In this document: positions 321 to 40,511 of the stretch, one piece after another
Layout: every line of letters begins with the position of its first letter
Numbering within the stretch: position 1 is the stretch's first letter
Source of the DNA: an uncultured virus (IMG/VR IMGVR_UViG_3300048919_000076)
Taxonomy: Duplodnaviria > Heunggongvirae > Uroviricota > Caudoviricetes
Reading direction: 5' to 3' (one strand)
DNA length: 64,000 nucleotides
IMG/VR virus record: IMGVR_UViG_3300048919_000076
The notes under the pieces: model-generated
What the model saw: the letters and a program-made list of their open reading frames with translations, nothing else
What the model was told of the DNA's origin: nothing
The model's database searches: none
Position numbers and translations under genes: made by a program

Positions 321-560
321 AAATAATTGTGGCCTTGCATTGTGAAGTGCATTGAATAACCTGTTGAATTCGGGGAAAGCTAAAGCGAGAGCCATGCCAA
401 TCCCGAGCGAAGCCTAAGAGTCTTTAGGAACGTGTAACGACTATCCCGTAAGGGAGTAGGATGCAAGCGCATTCGAAGCGGCAGGGGACTCTATGAGTCC
501 GTGATATAGTCTGATTCTCCGTGAAAGCGGAGTGAGTTTAGCGAACTCAATAACTGAATG
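321..560 (+). ncRNA. Group I self-splicing intron (240 nt, no ORF) in the DNA polymerase gene
   Basis: Upstream exon ends in U and the intron ends in G. P1 CCAU/GUGG has the U.G pair. P AAUUCGGGGAA 367-377, Q AAUCCCGAGC 399-408, P7 GACUA 439-443/UAGUC 507-511, P3 CCUGUU/GGCAGG. Splicing restores AYH-DEAQ in frame. Confidence 0.95.
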
Positions 561-824
561 GATGAGGCACAGTTGGAAGTCAAGAAAGAATTGGTGCAAT
601 TTAAGATGTTTGCAACAGAAGAAGAGGCACAAGCTTTTAAAGACAGTGAAACTAAGATTTGGTCTGATATCAAACCAAACGTAAAGGGCGGTTTCTTTGT
701 GGCCTACTCCCGTGCTGGTGAACTGGCATCGGAGTCTGTCAAAGAGGCTGGGGAATACTACAAACTAAATGTTGAACTAACAGCAGGATATATGGTGCAC
801 AAGCATTGGGCTGGGTGTCACTAA
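561..824 (+). CDS. Family A DNA polymerase, last exon
   Basis: Starts at DEAQLEV (motif C) and ends with the typical phage PolA terminus ...WAGCH. Confidence 0.93.
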   Translation, partial: DEAQLEVKKELVQFKMFATEEEAQAFKDSETKIWSDIKPNVKGGFFVAYSRAGELASESVKEAGEYYKLNVELTAGYMVHKHWAGCH

Positions 825-835
825 TGGAGTAAGTT

Positions 836-1492
836 GTGGAAGAAATTTGGAAAGATATTAAAGGTTTCGAAGGTATTTATCAGGTAAGCAATCAAGGTCG
901 TGTAAAACGATTAGAAACAACTACGATCATGAGAAATCAGGTCACAAGTTGGGAGCAGCCTCTTGCTGAGTATATCTTTAAACCCCCTCTAGACGGTCAC
1001 GGTTATCCTCAAGTATCTTTGAGCATGGGTGAAACTAAGAGAACAGCACGCGTGCATAGGCTTGTAGCTGAAGCGTTCCTGAGCGACCCGTCTGAAGAGT
1101 TGGTGCAAACTTGTATGGATGCTGGTTTGAATTACGTTCTGGTGAATCATAAAGATACTGATCCCACTAATAATGTATGGACAAATCTAGAATGGTGTAG
1201 TCCTAAATTTAATTGCGATTGGTCAGTTACTTCAGGAACTCACAACACAGAGACAATGAAAGGATCTTTGAACTACAATTCAGAGTTGACAGAGGAAGAC
1301 GTGGATGCTATTGTGAACCTCTTGAAAACGAAAGCTATGAGTCAGGAAAAGATAGGTGAGTTGTACGGTGTTAAACAAATTACAATCTCAAATATTTGGA
1401 CAGGACGTAGTTGGGCATGGTATGCTGGGATTCCTTGGAAAGCTCGCAGTCGTAGAAAGAAACAAAGATCAATTTCTATCGCTGAAAGCTAG
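836..1492 (+). CDS. Free-standing NUMOD4-HNH homing endonuclease
   Basis: EEIWKDIKGFEGIYQVSNQGRV (NUMOD4); VHRLVAEAF...VNHKD..PTNN..TNLEW (HNH); C-terminal HTH-like segment. Confidence 0.9.
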   Translation: MEEIWKDIKGFEGIYQVSNQGRVKRLETTTIMRNQVTSWEQPLAEYIFKPPLDGHGYPQVSLSMGETKRTARVHRLVAEAFLSDPSEELVQTCMDAGLNYVLVNHKDTDPTNNVWTNLEWCSPKFNCDWSVTSGTHNTETMKGSLNYNSELTEEDVDAIVNLLKTKAMSQEKIGELYGVKQITISNIWTGRSWAWYAGIPWKARSRRKKQRSISIAES

Positions 1493-1526
1493 TGCCATTG
1501 ATTTCAAGCTAAACCAAAAATATCGC

Positions 1527-1555
1527 TTGTAATGTCTGAATAAACGTGTCAGAAT
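1527..1555 (+). promoter_or_regulatory. Sigma70-like promoter
   Basis: TTGTAA-17 nt-CAGAAT with extended -10 TG, upstream of a GAGGAG RBS. Confidence 0.55.
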
Positions 1556-3436: not shown

Positions 3437-3694
3437 ATGATTAGCGAAAAAGAACTCTTTGACCGACTGGCAGACTTGGAATCTCAGAAACTTGTGTTGG
3501 CTGAAGACATTCGACAGCTCAAAGCAGACAGTAAGTATAATGAAGATGATTGTCCCCAAGGCCTGACTGCTGAAGTAATCAAACTCATTGCAGCAGCGGC
3601 TAAACTAGAAGCTAAGCGTGATTTTGAAGAAAAGAAAGATGCTGCAAATGCTGTGTTCAAGAAGTATGAAGAACTTAGTGGGTATAACGATTGA
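3437..3694 (+). CDS. Putative GapR/DUF2312-like dsDNA-binding protein
   Basis: Pattern L.DRL..LE.QK..LAEDI.QL.A..K...G.....IK.I resembles GapR/T4 DsbA. Confidence 0.5.
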   Translation: MISEKELFDRLADLESQKLVLAEDIRQLKADSKYNEDDCPQGLTAEVIKLIAAAAKLEAKRDFEEKKDAANAVFKKYEELSGYND

Positions 3695-4368
3695 AAAAGG
3701 TGAGGCTTGTTCATGGCATCGGTATTAATGATGTAGACGAACCAACACAAAGATTTATTCAAGTGTACGACCCAAAAACAGGCAAGAATAAATCAAAACA
3801 AGTTTGGAGGTGTCCGTTCTACAACAGATGGAAAGCCATGTTAGAAAGGGTTGCGTGCTTTAAATTAAAAGCTAAGTATCCTACATATGAAAACTGCACG
3901 GTCTGTGAAGATTGGCTTTATTTCTCTAAGTTTAAAGCTTGGATGCAACAGCAGAACTGGGAGGGAAAGTCTTTAGATAAGGATCTGTTGTTTAAAGGGA
4001 ATAAACATTACTCGCCAGACAATTGTGTTTTTATTGATAAGATCGTAAACACGTTTGTTCTTGAGAGGGATGGTGATAGGGGTCAGTATCCGTTAGGTGT
4101 TATCCTTCACAAAAAGACTGGGAAGTTTGAAGCACAATGCAACGATCCATTTTCAAACAAACGCGGCTATATTGGGTTGTTTGATACACCAGAACAAGCC
4201 CATGAAGCTTGGAGAAAAGCTAAAGAGGAGTATGCAAAAGAAATGGCTAAATTACAAAAAGATCCACGAGTAGCTAATGCGTTAATTGAACGCTATAAAC
4301 AAGATAATCTTGCAGAGAAAGTTGAAGAGTTGAATAAGCTTCAACAGATTCAGGAAGCTTATAGCTGA
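3691..4368 (+). CDS. HNH homing endonuclease with AP2-like domain
   Basis: VCEDWLYFSKF..W, LDKDLL..GNKHYSPDNCVF, IGLFDTPEQAHEAW. Confidence 0.85.
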   Translation: MKKVRLVHGIGINDVDEPTQRFIQVYDPKTGKNKSKQVWRCPFYNRWKAMLERVACFKLKAKYPTYENCTVCEDWLYFSKFKAWMQQQNWEGKSLDKDLLFKGNKHYSPDNCVFIDKIVNTFVLERDGDRGQYPLGVILHKKTGKFEAQCNDPFSNKRGYIGLFDTPEQAHEAWRKAKEEYAKEMAKLQKDPRVANALIERYKQDNLAEKVEELNKLQQIQEAYS

Positions 4369-24495: not shown

Positions 24496-24505
24496 AGGTG
24501 ACTCC

Positions 24506-26392: not shown

Positions 26393-26406
26393 TGTTTATT
26401 ACTCCG

Positions 26407-26978
26407 TCACTTTAGTTTATTTTTATCTGCTTTAGCTTTTTCTATAGCTTGCTGATGTAGAGAATCATACACATCCAGCATTTCAATCAACTTAAGCATC
26501 TGTCTTGTAGAATATTTCCATTCCATCTCAGATGCTAATTCCAACCCACCTTTCTCATGCATTGCAATTCTGTAAATACTCCAATGTTGAGAAAAGGTTT
26601 TGTCTATCTCTTGATCCAATCTTGTTTTACCCGATACAGGCTGTCCATTGGACTGTATTATTCTTCTGTATCGGGTGCCTGAAAAAGCTCTTCGAAGTTA
26701 AAGTTCAACACTTCCTTATAGAGCTTGTTCAAGTGGGCATATTTGCGAGAGAAGAAAACATCAAAAGACTTCTCAGTGATCTGCATATTATCTTTAGACA
26801 CATAGTTGCAGATGATTTGTTTCATCTGACTAAGGTCAGCTTTGCCTGCGTCAATAGCTTCTTGGTGCTTTTCAATAAAGATTAGACCCTTGGTTGCAGG
26901 CATAGCTGATACAAGGTATTCAATATCATCAACTGTAATAGTTGTTTGTTCAAGTACTTCAAATTTTGGAGCTGCCAT
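26407..26978 (-). CDS. Tail assembly chaperone pair (gpG 26658-26978 and -1 frameshifted gpGT to 26407)
   Basis: Lies between the tube genes and TMP. The -1 frame is open across CTTTTT (26687-26682) and an 11-bp stem follows. Confidence 0.75.
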
Positions 26979-27004
26979 TTATTTTATCTCAGAAATTACA
27001 TCAG

Positions 27005-27502
27005 TTAGAAAATGTTACTAATAAAATCAGTTGCTTCATTTACCGCACTGTCAAATAGACTTGTAGACGGACGAGTGTTGCCACCAATTTTATATGTGTC
27101 TGTTGACTGGCAAAAGATTTCCCAACCTCTGTATTCAAAGCCACCTGAATAAGTGGTAGTTGGGTATCCAGTAATGTATGCCTCATTGGATGAGAACACA
27201 CTTCCACCAGAGCCATCTTTCAACGTAAGGGCGATCCTTGCTGTACCTTCCTCTAAATCCAACTCATGGATATATGAAAGTACATCATTAGTTGGGGAGA
27301 ATTGAGCTAAGGAGAATTGAATAGTTGCTGAAGTATCTCTGTTGGGCACTCGTGTGTTTTTACCACGAATACCCCTGACAACACTAAAACCTTTGACAGT
27401 TCTGGATATAGAGATGGATTGCCAGCCAACAACTTGATAGCCACCGATGGTGAGTTTAACATCACCGGGACTATAAGTTGTTACCGTAAAACTATTTGCC
27501 AT
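27005..27502 (-). CDS. Tail tube-like structural protein
   Basis: YSP.DV...GG motif shared with the two neighbouring genes. Confidence 0.7.
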   Translation of the reverse strand: MANSFTVTTYSPGDVKLTIGGYQVVGWQSISISRTVKGFSVVRGIRGKNTRVPNRDTSATIQFSLAQFSPTNDVLSYIHELDLEEGTARIALTLKDGSGGSVFSSNEAYITGYPTTTYSGGFEYRGWEIFCQSTDTYKIGGNTRPSTSLFDSAVNEATDFISNIF

Positions 27503-28005
27503 CAGATAATTCCTTCTAGAATTGGTAGAGCACCTGTGGCAATATTAATTAAGTCTTGGAGGATACTTTGTTCATTTGCATTGCTGCCAATGTTGATAAC
27601 TGCTTGTGAACTTCTCAATACCCATGTCCGTGTATCTACAGAAGCGCTCTTTGACAAAGTTGGAAGACCCTCAATCCATGTAGTGGTACTGAAGAATAAA
27701 TCAGAGCCAGAGGAATCTTTACAGAGGAAGGCGAATTTCCCTCTTTGACTTATTTCATCAAGCTGCCAAAACTTAGTCAACACATCATTTGAGAAGGATC
27801 CAGCGTGAAGGGTCAGTGTGATTGTATAAGTCTGATCACTCTGATACAGCCTACCCATCTGACCATCCGCTGTCTTAACAGATGTGAATGGCATCATATC
27901 TTTATTAATGGATATGAAAGTTCCATCTACAAAACCCTCAACTGGCAAGATACCACCAATAAGGCAAACTACATCGTCTGGACAGTAGTTGAAAATTCCA
28001 GCCAT
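27502..28005 (-). CDS. Tail tube-like structural protein
   Basis: YCPDDV; GFVDGTFISI; ITLTL...S.SN.VL. Confidence 0.7.
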   Translation of the reverse strand: MAGIFNYCPDDVVCLIGGILPVEGFVDGTFISINKDMMPFTSVKTADGQMGRLYQSDQTYTITLTLHAGSFSNDVLTKFWQLDEISQRGKFAFLCKDSSGSDLFFSTTTWIEGLPTLSKSASVDTRTWVLRSSQAVINIGSNANEQSILQDLINIATGALPILEGII

Positions 28006-28018
28006 AAAAGCTCCTTAG

Positions 28019-28044
28019 AAAAGAGAGGGCAGACAAGCTGCCCC
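28019..28044 (-). terminator. Terminator (hairpin identical to 32711-32728)
   Basis: GGGGCAG-CTTGT-CTGCCCTC followed by TCTTTT on the minus strand. Confidence 0.7.
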
Positions 28045-28050
28045 ATTCAA

Positions 28051-28581
28051 TTATGGATTCAACTGCCAGCGCGGATCAACTTCACCACCAGCAGCTTCAA
28101 CTGCCGCAACTTCGGAATCACTAAGCGGAATATTGCCCCCAATAAAGAGGTCAGAACCAAACAAGTAGATAGCCCAGTCGCGGGTGCTAGTGTCTGAAGC
28201 AAATTGAACTGCTGGTGGTGCGACGATGATTGCGGTATTGGAACTAGCAACAGTCTGACCACTGGGATCTTTTAGGGTGCAGTTGAACACCCAATCGTTA
28301 TTAGTTGTGTTAGCATCAGCCAATTGCAACTGCTGTAGTACAGTATTACTTGGAGAGTACTGATGAAGTGTAATAGTTACATTCATACCTGTGTTCCGAC
28401 GACGTACTCTACCGAAGGCTGCGCCCCCAATCCCCTGATAAGGAATCGAACTCGGCTGTAACCTGTCCATACTAACAAAGGTTCCGTCTGCGAAGCCAGT
28501 AACAGTATGAACAAAATCACCCTTAGAAATTACAATCGTGAAATCATCGGGGGAATAACTACCAATAAAATTATCGGCCAT
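28051..28581 (-). CDS. Tail tube protein
   Basis: YSPDD; GFADGTFVS; follows the sheath gene. Confidence 0.8.
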   Translation of the reverse strand: MADNFIGSYSPDDFTIVISKGDFVHTVTGFADGTFVSMDRLQPSSIPYQGIGGAAFGRVRRRNTGMNVTITLHQYSPSNTVLQQLQLADANTTNNDWVFNCTLKDPSGQTVASSNTAIIVAPPAVQFASDTSTRDWAIYLFGSDLFIGGNIPLSDSEVAAVEAAGGEVDPRWQLNP

Positions 28582-28590
28582 TAGATTTTC

Positions 28591-29394
28591 CTATGCGTAT
28601 TGAAAATCAGGATGATTTTCTTTAATTCTTTTGTGAATGATATATTTCGAATGACCGGTAGCCTCTGTGGCGTGTTTAATACAGTCAAACTTAATATCAT
28701 TAATAATTACAGCAACAGAACTGTTATGATCTTTAGGATCAATACCAAAGAAGTTATTCTTCTCTCCATATTGATCCTTTTGTCTTTTCTTTGTTCCGGT
28801 AAAACCCTTATCTACACGATTCTGTACAGTGGCATAAGAAAGGGCTAGTTTATCAGCCGCTGTTTTTCGATTAGGAAACCAAAAGTCGCCTACAAAAACT
28901 GGATTATAAACCTCAGTTTGTTTGTAAACAATATCCTTCCTACCACGAATAATATCACCGAGAGTTCCGTTCCTTTGGCGATTTTTATAAGTAGATGTGG
29001 TAATATTTAATGCTTTGATAGCAACCCTTCGAACAGGGAACCAAAAACCACTTACGAAAACTGGCGTATCTCGCTTACTTCCGTTAACTGAATATCCGCG
29101 ACCAGCTTGACCACCCGGCTTAATATTATAACCGAACTTCTTTTCACAAGTTCTGTACAATGAAATAGCCTTTACTTCAAGATCTAAGATATAGTCCTTC
29201 GTGCCAATACAGGTAATTTCAAAAGAAAAGTTCTCCCTCCCATATTTATCCATGGCAACACGTATAATAGAAAATGCACTATGCCCCGTTTTCGAGAAAT
29301 GCCTTTGTTTTCTATTAGCTGGATTTGAAGTAATGCCTATATACATCTTACCGTTGATTTGGTTAACAATTTTATACAAGTAGCAATCTTTCAT
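28591..29394 (-). CDS. Free-standing GIY-YIG homing endonuclease
   Basis: YLYKIVNQINGKMYIGIT...R...H...E...GYN. Confidence 0.9.
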   Translation of the reverse strand: MKDCYLYKIVNQINGKMYIGITSNPANRKQRHFSKTGHSAFSIIRVAMDKYGRENFSFEITCIGTKDYILDLEVKAISLYRTCEKKFGYNIKPGGQAGRGYSVNGSKRDTPVFVSGFWFPVRRVAIKALNITTSTYKNRQRNGTLGDIIRGRKDIVYKQTEVYNPVFVGDFWFPNRKTAADKLALSYATVQNRVDKGFTGTKKRQKDQYGEKNNFFGIDPKDHNSSVAVIINDIKFDCIKHATEATGHSKYIIHKRIKENHPDFQYA

Positions 29395-29453
29395 AGAACC
29401 TCCTAAATAAAATGACTTAAATCATATCACCTAAAAGGTTCCATGTAAAGGAC

Positions 29454-30734
29454 TCAGACTGAAAGGAACCCATTAATTTGCACACGTCTGATACTTCCCG
29501 CAAGACGAGCGCGGAATACAAAGACACCGGCAGTACGTTGAGCGCGGAGTGTTGGGCTGATGGTACTTACATCTGGGGTACTCACGCTCCAACCACGATC
29601 AATCAGGCCATTTGCTTCTGCTTGAGAAAGTACAGAACGAATTTCATTTTCGATAATAGCAAGACCCGGATTTGTCATCGGAACTTTCAAACTATTAATC
29701 AAACGGAAATACACGCCTTCCTGAAGTCGGGCATAAAGCCAGTCGATCCCTACAATTTCGTCAATAGGCGAACCACCAAAAGTATCACCATCTTGGAAGA
29801 TGTTAACACCGGCAACAGTGGTGTACATGTTGCAGTTTTTATTACGAAGATTTACACGTTGAGTGTCAGTAAGATTACTTACGGTTACACCAACAGCACG
29901 TTTGAAGTCCCAGTCGTTCGAACCCGGAGTGTAGGGGAGTTGAGCACCCATCCAAGCAGCTTCTGGAAATTCAGTGTCAGCAGTTGGCAGATAGATACCA
30001 TAAGTGCGATCAGCAGTCTTATCACTCAACTTCTTAGCGATGTCTGTAATACCAGTAGTTGGAGTTACAGTATCAGCAGTGGAAGTACCATACAACTTAC
30101 GACGTGCATTAATCGCATCACTCAGAGCTTCTACGTCAGCAGAAACATGAGTCTCGGAAACAATACCGTACCAAACATTGTTTTCTTGTTCTACAGCTTC
30201 AAGAGCTTCAACCCAATCTTCAGTTACAGTGTTAACACCAACAAGATTAGCCGAAGCTGTAACACTCCAAGGAGTACCAAGTACAGTGGTGGTCAGAACT
30301 AGAGTGGTAGTACCGGATACTGTAATACCTGTAGGAGTACCAATAGCGGCTTTCAGACCAGTAACGATAGTGGTAGCAGTCGCGCCAACACCCGAAGTGA
30401 AGGTGTATGGAGCACCATTCAAGGTAACACTATACAGGGTATTGTCTGCTACAGTTGGGGTATAGGTTACAGCATCAACTTGACGACGACCTACAACAAT
30501 CGAAGGAGGTACAGCACCAACAGAAGATTGACCAAACAACTTAGTTGCAATCTTAGATACGTTACTGGTAGATTCGAAATCATCGCCTACAGCAGTGATA
30601 TCAGTGTAAGTACGGGTGCGTTCGGAGAAATTTGTAAAGGTTGCAAGAACCAACGGAATCTGGAAGCTTGCGGTGGCTACGGCTGTAGACTCACGGGTGA
30701 TCGTGATAGAAACGATCTGGTCCAATTCACTCAT
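29454..30734 (-). CDS. Tail sheath protein (DUF3383-like)
   Basis: Size, position, GIDWL..RLQ and LAG.I..V.I.G motifs. Confidence 0.9.
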   Translation of the reverse strand: MSELDQIVSITITRESTAVATASFQIPLVLATFTNFSERTRTYTDITAVGDDFESTSNVSKIATKLFGQSSVGAVPPSIVVGRRQVDAVTYTPTVADNTLYSVTLNGAPYTFTSGVGATATTIVTGLKAAIGTPTGITVSGTTTLVLTTTVLGTPWSVTASANLVGVNTVTEDWVEALEAVEQENNVWYGIVSETHVSADVEALSDAINARRKLYGTSTADTVTPTTGITDIAKKLSDKTADRTYGIYLPTADTEFPEAAWMGAQLPYTPGSNDWDFKRAVGVTVSNLTDTQRVNLRNKNCNMYTTVAGVNIFQDGDTFGGSPIDEIVGIDWLYARLQEGVYFRLINSLKVPMTNPGLAIIENEIRSVLSQAEANGLIDRGWSVSTPDVSTISPTLRAQRTAGVFVFRARLAGSIRRVQINGFLSV

Positions 30735-30810
30735 TGGTTCACCTCTGTATAATTAAAAGACATTCGTTAATCCTTATTTTATTGTTAAACTGCGGCATAC
30801 GAATGCCTTC

Positions 30811-31341
30811 TTACGGAATTATGATACCTTCGGGAACTGTAAAAACTCCCGTTTGTTCGGAGTCCACAATAATAGATTCGACCCAATCGCTAATCTCTGA
30901 AGTATTCACGATGTAGTTAAAGGTTACGTCTAAGTTGTGATATTCCACCCACTTGGTATCTCTTTTCTGTGGGGCTCTGCGTATTTGACTCTTACGCATA
31001 AATGCTAAATTATTCTTTGTTAAAGCTTCTCTTGACACAGGGACATTGTTAATTCTCTGAGTAAAGCTTTGAGACATGTCACCAGACAAGCTACCGACAA
31101 AGCTAAATTGAACCATCACTTCGTACACAACCCTAACATCTAACTTATAATCGGTACGTGTTTGAGCTGAAGTACTATTATGACCCTGTTGTTCAATATT
31201 AAGAATATTAATTACAACATAACTCTCAGCAGGTTCTGTACCATTATTGTGACTGAAGATTACCGGAGTAGTTGGATATTCTGATAATGCTGCAAGAGCC
31301 CCAAGTCTGATTGCTTTTCGGACATCTGTGTAAATTGGCAT
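30811..31341 (-). CDS. Neck/tail terminator protein
   Basis: Immediately upstream of the sheath gene. Confidence 0.65.
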   Translation of the reverse strand: MPIYTDVRKAIRLGALAALSEYPTTPVIFSHNNGTEPAESYVVINILNIEQQGHNSTSAQTRTDYKLDVRVVYEVMVQFSFVGSLSGDMSQSFTQRINNVPVSREALTKNNLAFMRKSQIRRAPQKRDTKWVEYHNLDVTFNYIVNTSEISDWVESIIVDSEQTGVFTVPEGIIIP

Positions 31342-31350
31342 ATGATGTCC

Positions 31351-31719
31351 TTAGTTTGGGGTTAGTTCTATTCTTGCGGCTTTACCCTCAAAATGATCAC
31401 GAGGCCCCATCTGGTATTGCTGGACCTTCATCATTTCGTAAAGTTCACCATTCCATGTGAATCGATCCCCACCATATCCGGCAGTACCTTCCTTCTTGTG
31501 TCGAATAGGGTCAGCCGTGAAGAACCACAACCAAGCTTTTGTTCTATCAGACTCAGGAAGAAGCATTACTTGATAATCAGTAAAAGGATGGACGTTAGCT
31601 TGTACAGTAACGGTTGAGTCAGCACCTTCAATCCATTCACCATCAACATACGAACCTGCTGCTTGTCGAGTAATAACGACAGGAGTTTTTCTAACTAAAG
31701 TAAATTCTGCAACTGACAT
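31351..31719 (-). CDS. Head closure protein
   Basis: G.YVDGEW; LLPE.DR; position. Confidence 0.65.
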   Translation of the reverse strand: MSVAEFTLVRKTPVVITRQAAGSYVDGEWIEGADSTVTVQANVHPFTDYQVMLLPESDRTKAWLWFFTADPIRHKKEGTAGYGGDRFTWNGELYEMMKVQQYQMGPRDHFEGKAARIELTPN

Positions 31720-32195
31720 TAGTCATCTCCCCGTTTAGCTACTTCGAAGTCTGTTGTTTCATACATGGTCCCACTATCAATCAGAGGATTATTAAATCCT
31801 TTATTCTCGATTGTTTTAGGGCTGTTTGGTGGTGTGTCCCATTTAGCAATAACATCTTTCATGTCTGTTACAAATACCGGACCAAGCTTTGTGTACTCTT
31901 GTTTGAAAGAACTCTTACCTTCAGCAATCCTTTGCATACTTTCTACAAAGAGCTTATCGTAGACTCCCTTCTTAACTGGTCCCATAAAACCTACTCGTAT
32001 GAAAGGTCTTGTTGGGTTAGTTGTTGAACCTTCTTCGTTCCACTGTGCTACTTGAGCAACAGGTAGGTTATCATTCTCAGGTCCGTAGTTTGATCCTTCA
32101 AACCAACCAATACGAAGTTCTTCTTGAGAACCTTTAAGAAGTTCTTTCTTTAATTTATTCCAACCAGACTTATCTACTTTTAGTTTGAAACTCAT
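31719..32195 (-). CDS. Neck/tail completion protein
   Basis: P.RPF; PNSPKTI..KG.N.PLIDSG. Confidence 0.75.
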   Translation of the reverse strand: MSFKLKVDKSGWNKLKKELLKGSQEELRIGWFEGSNYGPENDNLPVAQVAQWNEEGSTTNPTRPFIRVGFMGPVKKGVYDKLFVESMQRIAEGKSSFKQEYTKLGPVFVTDMKDVIAKWDTPPNSPKTIENKGFNNPLIDSGTMYETTDFEVAKRGDD

Positions 32196-32686
32196 TCGAA
32201 AGCATCCAACTCCCAACCAACGAATTGGATGGCAGAATCGATACCAAAGAAAGTAGAAGCATCTCTTGTAGAGTTACCATGATTATAAGGCTTCTCACCC
32301 TTATCAAATCCTTGATAAATAGGTTGAATATTATTATCTTGGTTAGAATCATTGTTGAACATGTCTACCTTACTAATACCACCAGCGTAAGGAATGATCC
32401 TTGTAGACAGTAATGAGGCCGGGGTTTTAATAACGTTCTGTAACGCAGCCAGATAAGCTGTGGAATAAGAGTTCCACACTTCATAATTCCCTGCTCTTTC
32501 ACGAGTAGGATAACTAGCAATTCGTAATGAAATGATGATTGCAGCTTTAATAGCAGCTTGCCAAACATCACCATTAGTTGTTTCTAAAAGATATTCATAG
32601 GTTTCGTCATCTAGGATTGGATAGAGAGGGTTTCCCTCTACATCACCTACAATGATTTTAACCTTGTCTGTATCTGTCAGGGCCAT
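32192..32686 (-). CDS. Head-tail adaptor protein
   Basis: V...VGD...P.LDDE....LL; PYAGGIS. Confidence 0.7.
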   Translation of the reverse strand: MALTDTDKVKIIVGDVEGNPLYPILDDETYEYLLETTNGDVWQAAIKAAIIISLRIASYPTRERAGNYEVWNSYSTAYLAALQNVIKTPASLLSTRIIPYAGGISKVDMFNNDSNQDNNIQPIYQGFDKGEKPYNHGNSTRDASTFFGIDSAIQFVGWELDAFE

Positions 32687-32699
32687 GCAGCCTCCTTAT

Positions 32700-32728
32700 A
32701 AAGTAAAGGAGGGCAGACAAGCTGCCCC
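32700..32728 (-). terminator. Terminator (hairpin identical to 28027-28044)
   Basis: GGGGCAGCTTGTCTGCCCTC followed by CTTTACTTT. Confidence 0.6.
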
Positions 32729-32732
32729 ACAA

Positions 32733-33077
32733 TCAACTGGCAGGCATAATCCCGGCAGTAATAAGTTTTGTCAGCAAAGCATTATATGCAGTGGTAACAG
32801 CTGCAAGGGATGCAAAGTCTGGAGACTGTTGTGCTGTGAAAGTAATTTGCTTGACAATACCAGCAGCAGCGGTAGTTGCAGCAACAGTACCAATAGCAGT
32901 ACGTGCAGCAGCAGCATCAGTTGCTGTAAGGACAGCGCGACCTACAGTAGTAGAGTCAGTGATGTCAGCAGCTTGTACAGAAGCACCACCATCATTTACG
33001 TTTGTAATTACACGATCAATTACAGTGAAGACATCGCCCCAAGAACGCTCTTGGATAGTTGTTTTTACAATAGCCAT
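32733..33077 (-). CDS. Putative head fibre/decoration protein
   Basis: TTVGRAVLTA.DAAAARTAIG; YNALL.KL..AGIM; follows the capsid gene. Confidence 0.65.
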   Translation of the reverse strand: MAIVKTTIQERSWGDVFTVIDRVITNVNDGGASVQAADITDSTTVGRAVLTATDAAAARTAIGTVAATTAAAGIVKQITFTAQQSPDFASLAAVTTAYNALLTKLITAGIMPAS

Positions 33078-33140
33078 TTCAAACTCCTAATCTATTTAAA
33101 CTGTAAGGGCACCAAACGATGCCCTTTATTTCAAAGACTA

Positions 33141-34184
33141 TTAAGTCGAAGAAATCAGCTTAACGAGTACTTGAGGCTGAGTGACGAAGTATAGAGGAGA
33201 AGTCTCAACTTGCATCTCGTGGAACTCATCTTTAGGATCGGTGAACTCGTATGCAAACATCTCAACACCAACACCGTTAGCACCACCCAGCTTGTTGCTT
33301 GGGCCGTAGTAACCACGGAACAGATCATTCACAACTGGCAGAACGTGACCAGTATCGGTAGCAACAGCTACTTCGGTAGTATCGTTAGGCAGTTTGAAGA
33401 TGTGATCGTAGGTGATGAAAGTAACACCTTTGTAGGTGAACTGATCTACCGAACCCCAAGCCATGAATTGGTTGGTGCTGTTACGGTTAATCTCAACTTG
33501 CGAAGCGTAGTACAGATAAGCTTGGCGAATCATTGGGTGACTAACCAGTTTATCGAAGAAACTACCATCTACAACAACACGAATACCGCCACCAATGGTG
33601 GAACCAGTTTTAAGGTTGGTTTGCAGATAACGCTTCAGTTGCGAGATTTTAGCGTTAACGTCGGTGGACGCATCACCAAGATCGAAGTCAATCACTTGTT
33701 GGGTGATACCAAACTGGGTGAACATGTCAGCAATTACAGCACCATCAGGGGTCTTCATGATACCCTTGGCAGCTTGCAACTTCATGTACTCAAGCGATTG
33801 TTCAACTTGGGCTTTCATGTCGGTCAGTTTTTGTACACGAACACGGGCCATTTGCTCAGGAGCGTCTGGGGTGCCCGGCATACGCCAGCCTTGAATATCT
33901 TCAGGAGTGATATAGTCACTGTGCTTGAAGTAAGCCAAAGGCAGGGAGAAGGTTTCAACTTTACGGTCGTTACCTTTGGTAGTATCACGGGAACGACGGC
34001 TTACTTGTGGAAGCAAGGTAGTATCGTTCATGCTCTTGTCAAAGACAATAGCGGTTTGGGTGGTGCCTTGAGTACGGAAAAGATCCATACCGCCAATCAA
34101 ACCAGCCTGATTGTCAAGGTTATTAATTTCGGATGTCCAGTCTACAAGCTGGAAGCCATTGCCAAAACTACGAGTAGTTGCCAT
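33141..34184 (-). CDS. Major capsid protein (lambda gpE-like)
   Basis: 347 aa, follows the decoration gene; DMFTQFGI; ETSPL...QP..LV. Confidence 0.9.
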   Translation of the reverse strand: MATTRSFGNGFQLVDWTSEINNLDNQAGLIGGMDLFRTQGTTQTAIVFDKSMNDTTLLPQVSRRSRDTTKGNDRKVETFSLPLAYFKHSDYITPEDIQGWRMPGTPDAPEQMARVRVQKLTDMKAQVEQSLEYMKLQAAKGIMKTPDGAVIADMFTQFGITQQVIDFDLGDASTDVNAKISQLKRYLQTNLKTGSTIGGGIRVVVDGSFFDKLVSHPMIRQAYLYYASQVEINRNSTNQFMAWGSVDQFTYKGVTFITYDHIFKLPNDTTEVAVATDTGHVLPVVNDLFRGYYGPSNKLGGANGVGVEMFAYEFTDPKDEFHEMQVETSPLYFVTQPQVLVKLISST

Positions 34185-34197
34185 TATTTATTATTCC

Positions 34198-34626
34198 TTA
34201 CGCGAATTGGTTCGGTTGATCGATTACTTGAATCCCTACAGCTTCCATCTGTGCGTACACAGCAGCAAGCTCAGGAGCAGTATCAACAGATGCACCAAAA
34301 ACCAAGTAACTCTTACCTACGCCAGCAGGACCACGGAACAGAACAGTTACCGAAGTATCAGTGGTAGCAGCGATGGATTGTTTGTTATCGCCATCAGGCT
34401 TGCCAATGTAGATACCAGCGAAGTTCTGGCTACCATCTACAGCAGTAGCTTCCAGAATCTTGTATTTACCAGTGGCAGTAACCAAACCAAGAACAGTACC
34501 AATCACATAGGATTTGATAGCAGCTTCGTTAGCGGTTACGACTTTACGGCAGTGGCCGTACTCAGGATGATCTTCATATTGCAGTACAGCGCCAAGGCGA
34601 GTAGAGCGAGTGTCAATTGCAGCCAT
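34198..34626 (-). CDS. Head decoration protein (gpD-like)
   Basis: GTVLG...ATGKY......DGSQ..AGI. Confidence 0.85.
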   Translation of the reverse strand: MAAIDTRSTRLGAVLQYEDHPEYGHCRKVVTANEAAIKSYVIGTVLGLVTATGKYKILEATAVDGSQNFAGIYIGKPDGDNKQSIAATTDTSVTVLFRGPAGVGKSYLVFGASVDTAPELAAVYAQMEAVGIQVIDQPNQFA

Positions 34627-34668
34627 ATTATTTGAAACTCCTAGCTAGGATTTTATTGATAAACAATA

Positions 34669-35622
34669 TTATTGTTTTTTACTTTTGTTAATAAGTTCAC
34701 CAACAAGATTCAGACCAGCTTCTTCTTGTTTCTTAGGTTCACCTTCACCGCTAACACCTTTCTCTTTGAAAAGGTCAGAGTCTTTTTCGTCTTTGGCTTT
34801 GTTGCCAAGGGACTTCAGAACTGCTTCAAATGCTTCGTCAGCCAATGCTTCGGTTGCTTTGAACAGACCTTCTGCTTCTTCTTTGCTAACTACAGCTTCA
34901 AGCTTTTCTTTACGGGCTTTAGCTACGACTTCCAGTTTCTCAGCCTTGAACACTTCCAGATCAGCGAGTGCTTTAGTCAGGGCAGATTCTTTTTCTACGA
35001 GCTGTGCTTTAAGAATTGCTTCAGCAGCATCAACTGCTTTCTTGATTTCTTGTTCCAAAATTTCTACCTCAGATTTTTTAAGTTCTTGCGCTTTGTGCAT
35101 CAACAATAGATGCTCTTGTGTATCTTTGTTTTGAAGGGCTTTAGTTACAAGGCTATAGATTCCTTCTTCTAGTTTATCTTCCGCATCTTCAGACAGAAGC
35201 ATTTCCCCAGACTCAGGTACGTATGAAATAACACGAGTCATGGGTTTGGCCAAATCACCAAGGGTGACCTTTCCATCTACAAGAGTGTAATCTACCGAAA
35301 ATAGACCACCCTCACTACAGAAGAGAACAATGGAATCATTATAATCTTCTACATACAGCCAATGATCGTCATCACCGAAAGCTTCACGAACTGCACTAGA
35401 AAGTGCCTCACTAACTTTGGATGCGAACATTGATTTGTTGATAAGTGACTTATCCAAGCCCAAAGCTACAAGAGCCTTTTCAACATCGTCAGTAATAGTT
35501 GCATCAGACTTCATAAGAAGCGATACATTACGTCCGTTAGCAGCGCCACCCTGCAAAGCATTGTGAGTAAGTGCTAGATGAGGACGTTTACTATCATCTT
35601 TTGTTTTAATAATCAAAGGCAT
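34669..35622 (-). CDS. Scaffolding-like protein
   Basis: Charged coiled-coil C-terminus, between protease and decoration genes. Confidence 0.7.
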   Translation of the reverse strand: MPLIIKTKDDSKRPHLALTHNALQGGAANGRNVSLLMKSDATITDDVEKALVALGLDKSLINKSMFASKVSEALSSAVREAFGDDDHWLYVEDYNDSIVLFCSEGGLFSVDYTLVDGKVTLGDLAKPMTRVISYVPESGEMLLSEDAEDKLEEGIYSLVTKALQNKDTQEHLLLMHKAQELKKSEVEILEQEIKKAVDAAEAILKAQLVEKESALTKALADLEVFKAEKLEVVAKARKEKLEAVVSKEEAEGLFKATEALADEAFEAVLKSLGNKAKDEKDSDLFKEKGVSGEGEPKKQEEAGLNLVGELINKSKKQ

Positions 35623-36326
35623 TATTCACCACCATCGAATGTGACATTGGTGATTTCACCAGTCTTTTGATTGATCTTACCTTTACCGCCGATACTTACA
35701 CCACCGATGACACCAGACTTCTTGAGGTTCCAAAGATCCTCACTATGGTACTGAACCTTTGCAATCCAAGTACCAGCCTTAATGACTTCATCAGTTTGAA
35801 CTACTTTCACATCCAATTCCTTTTGAACCCAAGTGGATTCAATAGTGAATGCATCAGTTTGTTCAAGGTGGAACAGATTAGCAGTAACAACCCCTTTCTC
35901 AAGGTTCTGATTGAAGTTATCACAAGCTTTTTCAATAGTGTCTTCAGACATCCATTCCCCATGAGCATCCTTCACTAGAGGCTCATAGACAACTTCGTAA
36001 GACACCATTTCTTCGTTGATTTCTTCAACTGCCTGTGTCTCGGTAGAGGCACTCCCAAAGAACTTCTCAATGAAGCTAGAGAACATGTCAATCATTTCAG
36101 AAGCTTTGAGGATGTTAGGTAGTTCATTATCTGGATAGAATTTCTTGTAAGCAGCACGAACTTTCTTCTTTACTGCTGGAAGATCAGCTTCCGGGATATC
36201 TACTTTGTTACCTCTGAAACCTTTACCAAGAGCTGCAACCGCGTCTGCTGTATGTCGGGCATCAGAGATATTAAGCTTTGCTTTAGACTCATTTTCGGGG
36301 TCTGGATTATATGCGTAAGTAGTCAT
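35622..36326 (-). CDS. Prohead serine protease (XkdF-like) with an extra N-terminal domain
   Basis: VVYEP..KDAHGE...H...GTW....LW...K.G.I.G.SIGG. Confidence 0.8.
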   Translation of the reverse strand: MTTYAYNPDPENESKAKLNISDARHTADAVAALGKGFRGNKVDIPEADLPAVKKKVRAAYKKFYPDNELPNILKASEMIDMFSSFIEKFFGSASTETQAVEEINEEMVSYEVVYEPLVKDAHGEWMSEDTIEKACDNFNQNLEKGVVTANLFHLEQTDAFTIESTWVQKELDVKVVQTDEVIKAGTWIAKVQYHSEDLWNLKKSGVIGGVSIGGKGKINQKTGEITNVTFDGGE

Positions 36327-37907
36327 TTATTCAGACTCCCTTTTAAGTTCATCATAGTCTTCTTTCATAAATCTGAATGACTTCCCATTGACAACCACAT
36401 CTACAAACTCCTCACCTTTAAAAAGTTGTGCAGATTTATTCTCAAGATTACCTACAGAGTTATCATTAGATCCGATTGGACTCTTACTTGTACCTTCACC
36501 GGCTGTTTTTTGGCCTTCACCTGCACCGGATTCATAACCAGTCAGTTGAGGTTTAAGTTCATCCAAACTTAGCTCAGAATCATGTCGTGTTGGTAAGCCT
36601 ACCCAATCAGCAACTTGATTAATGTTTTCAGGGGTAACAGCAATCAAACCAACAGATGCTGCACGTTGCAAGTACTTGGAGAGAACATCCAAATCTTCTT
36701 CTTTAATCTGGTCGTATTCAAAACAAGGAAGACGATCCAAACTCCAGCCATTCAACTTCCACAATTGCGGGATTAGGTCGGTGTTCAAAGGATCTTGAAT
36801 CTCTTTCAGATAGCTTTCAACTGCCATGTGAACAATACTGGACTTAGAGTCAGCGAGGTTGAACGAACCACCCTTACTGTTACCCATCTGCAAGATATCA
36901 GCGAACAGCGCTTGAAGGATCTTATTATCCCAACGAGTAATGGCTTTATCAGTGTCATACTGACTAGCATTAGGTGGGCCGATCAGTTCAAAGTCAAACA
37001 GACTGTTATTCTGATCATCATAGAACTTTGGCATAATAATACATGCTTGTTCATTGTTCTGAAGATTACGGCCAATATTCTTAAAGGCTTCAACAGTTGC
37101 CATTTGATCAGCAGTGGCATCAGCTTTGAGATAGTCAGCGGGGATATCAAACTTAGGAATACCACCCAAACCACGAGTGATACCAACAGCTTCAGACTCT
37201 TCAATCTGTTTACGATAACGCCAAGCTTTGTAAACTTTGCTCAGAGGAGAGCGACCTTGTGGGTTATCTCGACTTACATCTGTACGGAACAGAAGGAACT
37301 TATGACGTTCAATATCAATCTGACCACCGTATTGTGAGCTGTTAGCTAGACGATAACCATCAACTAGGAAACTTGTGTCTTGTACAACACCGCTAAGTTC
37401 ACGTCCGTCATCACTAAAGAGCCAACGATAAATAGTAGTCTGAGAGCGAGTTGCTAGCTTCTCAATACCAACAAGTCCGTCATCAAAGCGAGAACCATTA
37501 CTGAGGCGTCTACGCCGATACACTTTCTCTTGGATAGCATATCCGTATGTGAACATGCTAGTAACCTCTTTTATGAAAGAGAACCAACTATGTTCCATGT
37601 CATCCATACATTGTTGAAGGAATTGTACTTTCTTCAAATCATCTTCAGTAGGATCATTCGGAGGAGTTACTTTCCAAGATACTCGGCTAATCATCATAGA
37701 GAACAATGAAAGAGCAGAAGCAATTGTTGCATCTTCCCCCATTTCTTGGTAAGTACGGTTGGCTCTGGGCCAGGTCAAATCGCGTCTTTGCTCTTCAAGG
37801 ATAATACCATCGAACTCACGAAGACCTGTCCAGCCTACCTCCGACATCTTCATACGAAGTGCAGGGTTATCACCGGCAGAGAGGTCTAGATTGTCATTTT
37901 CTGCCAT
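36327..37907 (-). CDS. Portal protein (DUF935-like)
   Basis: 526 aa, follows terL; NPQGRSPL; GS..LAD.K. Confidence 0.9.
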   Translation of the reverse strand: MAENDNLDLSAGDNPALRMKMSEVGWTGLREFDGIILEEQRRDLTWPRANRTYQEMGEDATIASALSLFSMMISRVSWKVTPPNDPTEDDLKKVQFLQQCMDDMEHSWFSFIKEVTSMFTYGYAIQEKVYRRRRLSNGSRFDDGLVGIEKLATRSQTTIYRWLFSDDGRELSGVVQDTSFLVDGYRLANSSQYGGQIDIERHKFLLFRTDVSRDNPQGRSPLSKVYKAWRYRKQIEESEAVGITRGLGGIPKFDIPADYLKADATADQMATVEAFKNIGRNLQNNEQACIIMPKFYDDQNNSLFDFELIGPPNASQYDTDKAITRWDNKILQALFADILQMGNSKGGSFNLADSKSSIVHMAVESYLKEIQDPLNTDLIPQLWKLNGWSLDRLPCFEYDQIKEEDLDVLSKYLQRAASVGLIAVTPENINQVADWVGLPTRHDSELSLDELKPQLTGYESGAGEGQKTAGEGTSKSPIGSNDNSVGNLENKSAQLFKGEEFVDVVVNGKSFRFMKEDYDELKRESE

Positions 37908-37933
37908 GTTATTCCTTTGTTAAAGTAGGCTAA

Positions 37934-39271
37934 TTAAAAGCTGAATTCATTGGATTTTGTCATGCTGGGCATTGAGAACATCGGAACGTTTAACTTCTGG
38001 GCAAGTGTAATAAATGCATCAGATGAGGCGTCCACTTGGTCATCCTTTACATTACGACTACCATCAAAAGCCTCTAGTTCAAAAAAGTAAGCTTCGTTCC
38101 AAGGGCCTTCAACATATGAAACAAGACCAGCTTCGGATGCTGCTGCGAAAGGTTGGAAACGAACCACTTTAGACTTGTTAGTTGGTCGCATTCTTGCAGC
38201 AAAACCTTCTTCAAGTAGCTCTTTAATCATCATCTTACCGGCTGCAATTCCGGCTTGACCGGGCTCTTGAGGCAATATAATCTGAGTGTTATCAGGATCA
38301 GACTGAGCAGTCTTGATGATGGTTTTCATAACTTCACCATACCGAGCCATAAATGTGATTACGTCTTCGATGATGTACTGTCCTTGTTTTGTCTTTGCAA
38401 TCAAGACTCCACAAGTTTTGTCTGGGCGGGGGTTTGCATCTGATGGCACCGAGCCTGCGATATCCCATGCCCTGCATCGTGACACAATTTCTTGCTCAAA
38501 CATTTTTACCGGGATCACCCAGTCACGCTTGAAAAAACCACTCCCAGAATCGCGTACAAACCAATTCCCAAAAAGCAACCTAGCTTTTTCAGTCCCTTTG
38601 AGACCTTTAAGCCAAGAGACGTATTTTGGGTTAACTTTTTTTACGATTGGATTGTCATCTACGTTAGCACTAATAAAAGTAAACGACAGAGCGTCTTCTT
38701 CTGCTATTCCGTGGTTCTCAACAAGAGCTTCAATTGAATCACCCCAAACAAAGTCACCATCTTGGAAGGAGAAGTATCTTACAATACCGTCTCTGCTTCG
38801 ATCTGGAGTTCCATCTTCATGCAAGTAAGGCTCAACCCACTTCCTCAAGAAATGGTCTGCGTCAGGATTGCAGGTAATCTTTAGATGAGGCTTTACTTCA
38901 GGGCAAGATGGGTTACGCATACGAGACATGATGTATTGAATCATGTGTTGTGTGAACTGCGTACCTTCATCTACATAGAAAAGATTTGCCTCGGCACCTT
39001 GCCATGAGACATCACTTTGATCATTTTCAAAGTGTTTTAAATAGATTTCAGCTCCACTTTTATGGAACAAAAACTTACCGTCCTTAGCTCTCCAAGTGTA
39101 TTCATCTGGCTTATATGCTTGAGAGAAAATACGCTTACACTTAGTTAGAAGTCCACCGGGACCGGTGAGCTGTGGAGTATTCCGTCTGGTCATTACCCCA
39201 ATAAAATTAGGAATATCGGTGTACTTAAGAAAATCAATTACACCGATTTCAGATTTACCAGAACCTGCTGC
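37934..39271 (-). CDS. terL: Terminase large subunit, exon 2
   Basis: Starts at AAGSGKS (Walker A). Walker B FYVDE, TCNP, RAWDIA and KDDQVDA (nuclease). Confidence 0.93.
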   Translation of the reverse strand, partial: AAGSGKSEIGVIDFLKYTDIPNFIGVMTRRNTPQLTGPGGLLTKCKRIFSQAYKPDEYTWRAKDGKFLFHKSGAEIYLKHFENDQSDVSWQGAEANLFYVDEGTQFTQHMIQYIMSRMRNPSCPEVKPHLKITCNPDADHFLRKWVEPYLHEDGTPDRSRDGIVRYFSFQDGDFVWGDSIEALVENHGIAEEDALSFTFISANVDDNPIVKKVNPKYVSWLKGLKGTEKARLLFGNWFVRDSGSGFFKRDWVIPVKMFEQEIVSRCRAWDIAGSVPSDANPRPDKTCGVLIAKTKQGQYIIEDVITFMARYGEVMKTIIKTAQSDPDNTQIILPQEPGQAGIAAGKMMIKELLEEGFAARMRPTNKSKVVRFQPFAAASEAGLVSYVEGPWNEAYFFELEAFDGSRNVKDDQVDASSDAFITLAQKLNVPMFSMPSMTKSNEFSF

Positions 39272-39511
39272 CTTTTCTGTTATAAAGCTCGCTAAGCCTT
39301 CTTAAGTTTCCCTAAGTGTCGGACCAACTCTTAATTCTAAGAATTCTCTCTGTTTCGGGAATCGCTTGATCCCTACTCTACTCACTTCCACATTACTGTG
39401 TGTTTTCGATGGCCTCTACGCACTGTCTTTAAACATTGGCACGGGATTGGCATAGACTAAAGTCCTCAGCTTTCCCCGTTTAAGAGAGTTTTAAATGGAG
39501 GCGCAAAGTTC
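39272..39511 (-). ncRNA. Group I self-splicing intron (240 nt, no ORF) in terL
   Basis: Exon 1 ends GGU, which pairs with intron GCC (U.G). Intron ends in G. AAACGGGGAA, AAUCCCGUG, P7 GGCCA/UGGUC, P3 CUCUCU/AGAGAG. Splicing restores YGG-AAGSGKS. Confidence 0.93.
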
Positions 39512-39613
39512 ACCACCATATAGCGTCACGTCCGTCTGGGCGGCAACATACATGTGTTGCCGCTGACTCACGGGACCGGGTAAAGGAGTTTCTTTACTCT
39601 TTTGTCCAGCCAT
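39512..39613 (-). CDS. terL: Terminase large subunit, exon 1 (34 aa, not in ORF track)
   Basis: MAGQKSKETPLPGPVSQRQHMYVAAQTDVTLYGG; the spliced product is 479 aa. Confidence 0.88.
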
Positions 39614-40511
39614 AATATTTGATTTCACCTTCTGTTCTAGCTTGGCAAGCCGCTTCAAAGGAAACATTATAGGCTAGAATAATTCTCTCTTTATAGTGGG
39701 AGATTATTGCTTGCCAACTGCCATTTGCTAATTGGAAGACACCAACTCTACCTGAAGTATTATTTGTGCCCATTCTTCGATTATAAGCTTGTACTGTTAA
39801 GTCTGCCCAACGACAATTTTCCTTGAAATAACCAAGGTCAGGGTCTATTCGATCTAAAGTCATTCCTTCGGGACGTTCGCCCATGTCAGCATAGAAAGCT
39901 TCAAAAGAATCAATCCACTCCTGACAAACACCAATACCACGGTCTTGATAATAATCTTTTTCAGCATAAGACTCTAAGTAACAACGCTCTTTCATTTTCT
40001 GCCAAGAGCGATGAGTTGGAGTGCCATGCATACCGTGTTTAGTTTGCAGTTCAGAGATTTTCTCAGATTTCCAGCATCCACAGGATGAGTAATCTTGCAA
40101 GTTAGAACGTCTTGTAGAGTGTTCAGTTCCACACTCACACAGGCAATTCCAAACAGAAACTTGTTGATCATCTGAAAGCCTGTTCCACTCTTTAAACCCT
40201 AAGACTGTAAGGCGCCCAAACTTTTCACCAACAAGTTTCTCTGGAATCCATTCACCAGACTTAACCTTCTCACGGTGTTTGACGAATATCTGTCTTTTCT
40301 CACACCCGCAAGAGGTTGTATGTCCTTCCTGTTTTAAGTTAGAACCTGTTGCAACAAATTGTTGTCCACAAGCACACTGACACAACCACTTAGACTTTCT
40401 TTGCCCACTTGGTTGATAATGCCAACTATCAAAAGATAAGACTTCAACTTTACCAGTCTTAAATCCCGTATAGTCTACGAACCCTTTCGGGAATTTTATT
40501 TCTTCATTCAT
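39594..40511 (-). CDS. Free-standing HNH homing endonuclease
   Basis: Two W.C.C.CG...SCGC repeats; DMGERPEGMTLDRID....Y.KENCRWA; AP2-like tail. Confidence 0.9.
   Translation of the reverse strand: MNEEIKFPKGFVDYTGFKTGKVEVLSFDSWHYQPSGQRKSKWLCQCACGQQFVATGSNLKQEGHTTSCGCEKRQIFVKHREKVKSGEWIPEKLVGEKFGRLTVLGFKEWNRLSDDQQVSVWNCLCECGTEHSTRRSNLQDYSSCGCWKSEKISELQTKHGMHGTPTHRSWQKMKERCYLESYAEKDYYQDRGIGVCQEWIDSFEAFYADMGERPEGMTLDRIDPDLGYFKENCRWADLTVQAYNRRMGTNNTSGRVGVFQLANGSWQAIISHYKERIILAYNVSFEAACQARTEGEIKYYGWTKE

Follow-up and report, generated by a model that had tools for sequence, protein, structure and literature searches.

A 64,000-nt stretch of DNA from an uncultured phage from soil or roots (class Caudoviricetes; IMG/VR record IMGVR_UViG_3300048919_000076; hereafter, the window) contains a family-A DNA polymerase gene (polA, or pol) and a terminase gene (terL) that are each interrupted by a group I intron without an open reading frame (ORF), and each of these genes lies beside a free-standing nuclease gene. 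Our reading is that the two introns and the two nuclease genes, which are free-standing homing-endonuclease genes unrelated to each other, are four separate selfish elements. They sit at two classic hot spots, behave independently, and are sometimes mobilized together. We give this reading, which involves neither a duplicated intron nor obligate partnerships, a probability of about 55%. The initial annotation had instead proposed double collaborative homing, in which each free-standing endonuclease cuts intron-less alleles and each intron, both being of one lineage, protects its own allele. The layout, the adjacency, and the movement of the introns hold up; a strict pairing of intron and nuclease is only partly supported, as orthologs of the nucleases lie beside intron-less genes.

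By analogy, we favor the trans homing of T4 mobE as the model for the window. Each intron lies where the coding sequence of an essential gene is most conserved (motif C of PolA and Walker A of TerL), and its structure suggests that it splices itself out of the mRNA. Each nuclease gene occupies an intergenic slot beside that gene, and in relatives the slot is filled by many families of nucleases, intron or not. During co-infection, each nuclease would nick or cut the neighboring gene region of a relative that lacks that nuclease, and repair from the donor genome would then copy the nuclease gene. Because the intron is only 82–276 nt from the nuclease gene, it would often be copied too. This would be facultative trans (or "collaborative") homing, with the intron as a hitchhiker, and the intron would not be needed to protect the genome that carries it.

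The introns and the adjacent nuclease genes

As the initial annotation had it, both introns are exactly 240 nt and ORF-less, one in polA on the plus strand and one in terL on the minus strand, and both nuclease genes are present, one starting 11 nt past the stop codon of pol and the other overlapping the start of terL (Table 1). No ORF of at least 40 amino acids lies wholly within the pol intron or the terL intron, so neither can encode a nuclease.

Table 1. Interrupted genes, introns, and adjacent nuclease genes in the window (a slash marks the point of interruption).
Feature	Coordinates	Strand	Remarks
Family-A DNA polymerase (polA) exon 1, 3' part	3..320	+	Runs off the start of the window; ends ..QQMIAYH, with His encoded by CAT
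ORF-less group I intron, polA motif C (H/DE)	321..560	+	240 nt; RF00028, 68.4 bits
polA exon 2	561..824	+	87 amino acids plus stop; begins DEAQLE; joined to exon 1 in 64/80 relatives
I-HmuI-like HNH endonuclease gene, free-standing	836..1492	+	NUMOD4 and HNH; GTG start
terL exon 2	37934..39271	-	445 amino acids plus stop; begins AAGSGKS; Terminase_6N 2.6e-14, Terminase_6C 3.5e-18 (Pfam)
ORF-less group I intron, Walker A (GG/AAGSGKS)	39272..39511	-	240 nt; divergent subtype
terL exon 1	39512..39613	-	34 codons; ends ..DVTLYGG; tblastn to 24 relatives
Atypical HNH-like/AP2 homing endonuclease gene, free-standing	39594..40511	-	305 amino acids; phrog_374, 9e-74

The part of polA exon 1 that lies in the window (106 amino acids) matches 80 related loci at 59–88% identity, and these loci are the basis of our pol comparison. 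The reading frame of exon 1 stops at 324–326, inside the intron. At the exact point of interruption, the exons are contiguous in 64 of the 80 loci and there is an insert in 16; we placed the intron as in Table 1 because the exon peptides are contiguous in those 64 relatives. Its match to Rfam model RF00028 is above the gathering score of 50 (E = 3.1e-15). The junction, MIAYH/DE, is in motif C; T320 precedes the intron, G560 is its last nucleotide, and P1 pairs CCAU with GUGG. A preceding T and a terminal G are found for both introns and for all 16 + 6 relatives with an insert at the same site. In all intron-bearing pol alleles, exon 1 ends with CAT, as P1 pairing requires, versus CAC in 46 of the 64 intron-less alleles.

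At the DNA level, polA is about 70–73% identical to Pakpunavirus and phi92-like phages (by blastn), and the phage relatives are contigs of 84–97 kb. Contigs from two other studies are about 96% identical across positions 1–1500, with the same layout of pol, intron, and nuclease. Among contigs from RNA libraries, we found no spliced joint. The only such contigs (X19 and X24, from metatranscriptome libraries of two studies) correspond to positions 189–571 of the window and run from the last part of exon 1 through the complete intron into the first part of an exon 2 that has diverged. They carry the unspliced intron of a relative that is about 92% identical, and they are either unspliced RNA or carried-over DNA of that relative.

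The nuclease gene after pol is 276 nt from the intron and has GGAG 8 nt upstream of its start. Its product matches NUMOD4 (8.9e-13) and phrog_59 (2e-43); its score against HNH_3 is just under the cutoff (24.2 versus 24.8 bits). It also matches I-HmuI (1u3e; E = 3.4e-12), with the NHKD..NN..NLEW motif aligned. With NUMOD4 and a His..Asn..Asn/His motif, the protein is of the I-HmuI type. I-HmuI, a nicking HNH enzyme from the DNA polymerase intron of phage SPO1, is its closest solved relative, although I-HmuI is encoded within its intron and the window's gene is free standing.

The terL comparison covered about 30 loci, of which 24 could be assessed at the Walker A site, and in 18 of these the exons are contiguous at LYGG/AAGSGKS. 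The terL intron scores only 38.4 bits with RF00028, which is under the gathering score (E = 4.6e-8 in a 1-kb scan), and scans of the whole window with this model did not report it. It is nevertheless a real group I intron, given the contiguous relatives, the higher scores of other introns at this site, and covariation. Specifically, the loci that we label L087, L088, and L108 have introns of 228–229 nt at the same site that score 65–68 bits with RF00028, and among 7 aligned introns from this site, 10 of 40 predicted pairs are changed on both sides with pairing kept. These covarying pairs span P1, P4/P5, P7, and P9. A short exon 1 followed by a low-scoring intron is easily missed in annotation.

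There is also a second intron site in terL, toward the 3' end of the gene and after residue 411 of exon 2 (..KDD/QVDA..), which is occupied in L089, L090, L094, L095, L103, L105, and L108 by ORF-less group I introns of 226–257 nt. The ones that we scanned (L089, L094, L103, and L108) score 66–81 bits with RF00028. L108 bears both terL introns, and the window lacks the second one.

The nuclease gene on the terL side overlaps the start of terL (ATG at 39613–39611) by 20 nt and is 82 nt from the intron. Its HNH label comes from PHROGs alone (phrog_374): Pfam's HNH models had no match among the 43 proteins that we scanned, i.e., this protein and 42 aligned with it. In the protein, two beta-barrel repeats with CxC..CGC are combined with a nuclease-like domain that is divergent (LDRID..NCRW) and, at the C terminus, an AP2 domain. 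The family has an invariant arginine (R221) at the position of the canonical catalytic histidine, which is the His of DHID in L015. An AlphaFold model (mean pLDDT of 90.5) contains an AP2 fold (2gcc_A; Z of 6.2, root-mean-square deviation of 1.8 over 53 residues) and is weakly similar to PacI, an HNH restriction enzyme (3m7k_A; Z of 4.3 over 75 residues). Foldseek found no match for the whole model in PDB at E of 0.001 or better, and a sequence search of PDB gave nothing meaningful. In these respects, the protein resembles the atypical HNH homing nucleases with a linked AP2 domain that Barth et al. 2023 describe.

Introns and nucleases across related phages

Comparisons with relatives indicate that both introns move horizontally, also without a resident nuclease gene being copied along. 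The pol intron is 92–95% identical to the introns of L042, L044, L045, and L049, while their exons are 67–71% identical, and none of these four loci has a nuclease gene after pol. The terL intron is 99% identical to the one in L084. Its identity to the introns of L091 and L096 is 87–88%, against 75% for exon 2 of these two loci. Similarly, the terL introns of L087, L088, and L108 are 96–97% identical and their exons are 74–79% identical. The nucleases upstream of terL in L087 and L108 are 42% identical to each other and the one in L088 is of another family, so that L087 and L088 combine a 97%-identical intron with nucleases of different families. Beside the introns, the exons are not more similar than they are in relatives without an intron, and we saw no co-conversion tract.

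The nucleases, for their part, are found beside uninterrupted genes. The only close ortholog of the pol-side nuclease (71% amino acid identity) is in L006, where it follows an intron-less pol. For 14 nt on either side of the insertion site, the sequence of this pol equals that of L005, which bears the intron, across its exon junction. Among 80 relatives of this nuclease in IMG/VR, just one, L201, adjoins a pol of this type, and its contig is the one that carries L006. Homologs directly after polA are also found in phages Ro1, SPLA5a, PWH3a-P1, and K54_rec4; the closest cultured homologs (48–53% identity) all lie immediately 3' of polA. In Ro1, SPLA5a, and PWH3a-P1, polA is uninterrupted, while polA of K54_rec4 has two HNH-bearing introns, one of them at the window's site.

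The terL-side nuclease has about 75 full-length homologs in metagenomes (46–87% identity), and its cultured homologs (about 39% identity) adjoin genes for ligase or Dda helicase, not terL. An alignment-based scan of IMG/VR and the scan of metagenomes found mostly distant members of the family: 7 of 160 loci with such a nuclease matched any probe for terL, portal, pol, or orf127, and 6 of those 7 matches were to TerL. Of these homologs, the ones in L282 (72% amino acid identity, an ortholog) and L283 (42%) precede an intron-less terL, and the one in L285 (33%) precedes a terL that has an intron like the window's, 220 nt long. The insertion site in L282 reads GGC GGG, where intron carriers have GGT GGT. 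The initial annotation's view that the intron protects its own allele is not supported as a necessity, given the nucleases beside intron-less genes in L006, L282, Ro1, SPLA5a, and PWH3a-P1.

To count nucleases after pol, we scanned 86 plus-strand ORFs of at least 100 amino acids that start at most 700 nt from the stop codon of pol, and we left out 10 pol loci with little sequence beyond the gene. Among the 12 intron-bearing loci that could be assessed, 5 have a free-standing nuclease gene after pol, one (L046) has an HNH gene inside the intron, and 6 have none. The five free-standing genes are two GIY-YIG genes, two of the same HNH family as the window's, and one of the terL-side family. There is also a nuclease after pol in 10 of 58 assessable intron-less loci, and these come from five families. 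(The intron-less loci L011 and L038 have Endo VII-like genes after pol.) Directly upstream of terL, we found a nuclease at 4 of the 6 loci with the intron and at 15 of the 18 without it; L100 and L106 were scored via L099 and L097, copies with an identity of at least 97%. All four states, i.e., neither element, the intron only, the nuclease only, and both, are found at both pol and terL.

The pol site has other arrangements as well. Inserts of 762–792 nt lie at the exact position of the pol intron in L046 (3310–4071), L111 (Pseudomonas phage SPA01), and L115 (Klebsiella phage K54_rec4), and each contains an HNH gene of the pol-side family. So across the clade, a single site in pol has the nuclease alone, the intron alone, the two side by side, or the nuclease inside the intron. 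In phage inny, the "polymerase part I" is not divided at this site.

Several results weigh against the independence of the four elements. For the dereplicated pol loci, there is a nuclease at 6 of 12 intron-bearing loci versus 9 of 55 intron-less ones (P = 0.02 in a Fisher test that ignores kinship among the loci; the other tests of co-occurrence are on dereplicated loci as well), and if we count free-standing genes only, the intron-bearing loci have 5 of 11 (P = 0.046). The enrichment is about five-fold. In IMG/VR, full-length nucleases of the terL-side type occur only by intron-bearing terL (3/6 versus 0/15, P = 0.015), and altogether there are five pairs of such a nuclease with a Walker A intron (the window, L084, L087, L108, and L285). 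Also, members of the pol-side family lie inside introns at the same site in L046, SPA01, and K54_rec4, which makes it plausible that this family targets the site of the pol intron. Finally, ORF-less introns that are 95–97% identical in divergent hosts need an endonuclease from elsewhere, and the neighboring gene is the obvious candidate.

These results speak for genuine collaborative homing in one or both of the modules, in which the nuclease would cut or nick the intron-less allele at or beside the insertion site, the intron would split that site and immunize its carrier, and both would be copied. This is a real possibility, although we would not bet on it. At both loci, an ORF-less intron and a free-standing nuclease gene lie within co-conversion distance (276 nt at pol and 82 nt at terL); the pol-side family forms a series from free standing to adjacent to internal; and in one sample (run X2), intron-less pol alleles occur together with a 96%-identical phage that has the intron and the nuclease. 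On the other hand, the nearest diverged orthologs of both nucleases are beside intron-less genes (L006, with its insertion site intact, and L282), and polA is uninterrupted in four lineages in which a pol-side homolog comes after it (L006, Ro1, SPLA5a, and PWH3a-P1). The metagenome scan also altered the picture from IMG/VR alone, as L282 and L283 have terL-side-type nucleases before an intron-less terL. Co-occurrence of intron and nuclease among relatives, which should follow from the initial annotation, is mixed, with the enrichment at pol and none at terL if any nuclease is counted (4/6 intron-bearing versus 13/15 intron-less loci, P = 0.54). Near-identical introns beside different nucleases or none, and the lack of raised exon identity and of a co-conversion tract beside the introns, also count against collaborative homing, and the terL-side enzyme lacks the canonical catalytic histidine.

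Another idea, which we consider unlikely, is that ORF-less introns persist because they act as shields: an intron that divides the Walker A or motif C coding sequence would remove the target sites of the many competing nuclease families at the terL and pol slots. If so, the intron would be an anti-homing device among several nucleases rather than the partner of one enzyme, and its carrier would be guarded from the kind of cassette replacement that distinguishes the window from its nearest record (see below). The clade would then display, at one site in pol, every stage of the proposed route to mobile introns.

It seems more doubtful still that the elements are relics of nuclease turnover, i.e., that the introns lost nuclease genes of their own and that the neighbors are later, unrelated arrivals that home into their own slots. 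Such turnover was proposed for the terL locus of phage ICP1 (Barth et al. 2023, PMC10448857). The HNH-containing introns of 762–792 nt at the same pol site and the different nuclease families beside near-identical introns are what turnover would leave behind. However, ORF-less introns that are 95–97% identical across hosts with 70–75% identical exons are still spreading, so they must be mobilized now, and turnover leaves the enrichment of nucleases on the pol side unexplained.

As for the kinship of the two introns, the initial annotation called them twins of one lineage. The sequence blocks that it listed are indeed shared, but they are not special to the pair, as they are found across the intron family at three sites: CAAGCG is in 30 of 30 introns, GAGTAGG in 22 of 30, and TTAGCGA in 24 of 30. 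The two introns are 63% identical, which is no more than background, since each is 58–68% identical to introns at other sites. The pol intron is 59–95% identical to other pol-site introns, 62–68% to introns at Walker A of terL, and 60–64% to those at the third site (3' in terL), and the terL intron is 63–99% identical to introns at its own site. We built a maximum-likelihood tree from 26 introns, on which no more than the minimum of 2 changes is needed among the three site labels; the pol intron is in a well-supported clade of 7 pol introns, and the terL intron is in a well-supported clade of 4 terL introns, on a long branch (0.97 changes per column). Because intron lengths vary among the relatives (224–280 nt in pol and 228–241 nt in terL), the match of 240 nt to 240 nt is a coincidence. 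Rather than a matched pair, the two introns are ordinary mobile elements, separate from each other, at hot spots that are already known.

The P4–P5 blocks of the terL intron (39440–39480), in the window and in L084, match the pol type and are unlike those of the closest terL-site introns, in L091 and L096, which have a different and better-paired P5. This likeness could be due to chance, to a common variant of P5, or to gene conversion between the introns of one genome. That one intron was copied between pol and terL within a genome, by reverse splicing or ectopic homing, would account for the equal lengths, the shared blocks, and the pol-like P4–P5, yet it is very improbable given the site-specific clades and the long branch of the terL clade, a pair identity that is the same as to third-site introns, and lengths in relatives that range from 224 to 280 nt.

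Comparison with known systems

The layout in the window matches what has been published as collaborative homing (Hausner 2014, PMC3984707; Barth 2023, PMC10448857; Wilson and Edgell 2009, PMC2790892). It has already been described in T3-like phages, in terL of ICP1, in psbA of S-PM2, and in CB7. Collaborative homing was described for the DNA polymerase gene of T7-like phages of the T3/PhiI type (Bonocora and Shub 2009, as cited in PMC3984707 and PMC10448857), and the series from a free-standing to an adjacent to an internal nuclease is also credited to Bonocora and Shub (PMC3984707). The window differs in that it belongs to another group of phages (myophage-like, about 90 kb) and in that orthologous nucleases are also found after an intron-less pol.

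In terL of the Vibrio phage ICP1, an ORF-less intron near the 5' end has a T5orf172 gene adjacent to it, and splicing was seen by RNA-seq and by reverse transcription PCR (PMC10448857). In both ICP1 and the window, exon 1 is short, the intron is ORF-less, and the gene immediately upstream of exon 1 encodes a free-standing nuclease, but the nuclease is HNH-like with an AP2 domain in the window and T5orf172 in ICP1. (The window's one DNA match to ICP1 is in the introns of the tape-measure gene, not in terL.) The same paper describes atypical HNH nucleases linked to AP2 ("IPA-HNH"), nuclease turnover, and the exchange of cassettes that are bounded by nucleases, which fits the window's terL-side nuclease and the cassette exchange that we describe below. 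In psbA of cyanophage S-PM2, an ORF-less intron likewise lies next to a free-standing nuclease gene. The S-PM2 enzyme, F-CphI, is directed at psbA and has an active site of the Endo VII type (Fang et al. 2018, PMC6083498), unlike the HNH and HNH-like nucleases at pol and terL of the window.

In the case of mobE and nrdB in T4, a free-standing HNH gene mobilizes a neighboring immobile intron, and the cut site is not the insertion site; co-conversion in T4 can extend over as much as about 2 kb (Wilson and Edgell 2009, PMC2790892). The T4 nrdB intron contains a defunct nuclease gene, unlike the window's introns. Like the window, Pectobacterium phage CB7 has introns in polA and terL, and its polA ends next to an HNH gene that is free standing (Buttimer et al. 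2020, PMC7344957). Klebsiella phage vB_Kpn_K54_rec4 has the same layout at pol, and its downstream HNH protein is 50% identical to the pol-side nuclease. The introns of CB7 and K54_rec4 contain HNH genes, though, and the window's do not. Finally, I-HmuI cuts intron-plus as well as intron-less DNA (Kong et al. 2012, PMC3428280), which means that an intron is not the necessary source of self-immunity.

Although the window offers no new mechanism, it and its relatives are a well-sampled natural series of ORF-less introns and free-standing nucleases that gain, lose, and swap partners at two essential genes. We expect this to be of use for the study of homing, of phage mosaicism, and for annotation.

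Cassette exchange and other features of the window

The nearest record to the window is a 33.7-kb fragment (G001) that lacks the pol region. It is 99.6–99.7% identical to the window over 16938–32882 and 40730–50231. Toward terL, the identity drops in steps, first to 93% and then to 76%, and between 38023 and 40730 of the window there is no DNA match to G001, which has in this stretch a different HNH gene and an intron-less TerL that is 36% identical to the window's at the amino acid level. Because the flanks are 99.6–99.7% identical while the cassette is unmatched, the cassette of nuclease and terL was exchanged very recently. This is a clean example of a nuclease-bounded terL cassette being swapped between genomes that are otherwise 99.7% identical.

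The divergent stretch as a whole (32900–40730) begins a short way upstream of the nuclease gene on the terL side, takes in terL and the portal gene, and continues for about 3.4 kb beyond them, and the sharp boundary at 40730 falls in the 3' end of a 127-amino-acid ORF. Between a 130-amino-acid ORF and the HNH gene, G001 also has a P-loop ORF of 215 amino acids (L003, 842–1489), with a weak match to the terminase N-terminal family phrog_979 (1.6e-5) and no real similarity to either TerL. With megablast, positions 30000–50000 of the window had no match to cultured phages.

Scans for promoters and terminators gave consensus-level matches only. A pair of adjacent tRNA genes lies on the minus strand at 47571–47651 and 47659–47731 (50.5 and 49.6 bits with RF00005). 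The 64-kb window has 5 nuclease genes, of which 3 are far from any intron. These three homing-endonuclease-like genes are free standing, with no intron adjacent: a phrog_953 gene at 3691–4368 (plus strand), upstream of an exonuclease gene; a GIY-YIG gene at 28591–29394 (minus strand), beside the tail sheath gene; and a phrog_374 gene at 54646–55464 (plus strand), between genes for a PhoH-like protein and a Clp-like protease.

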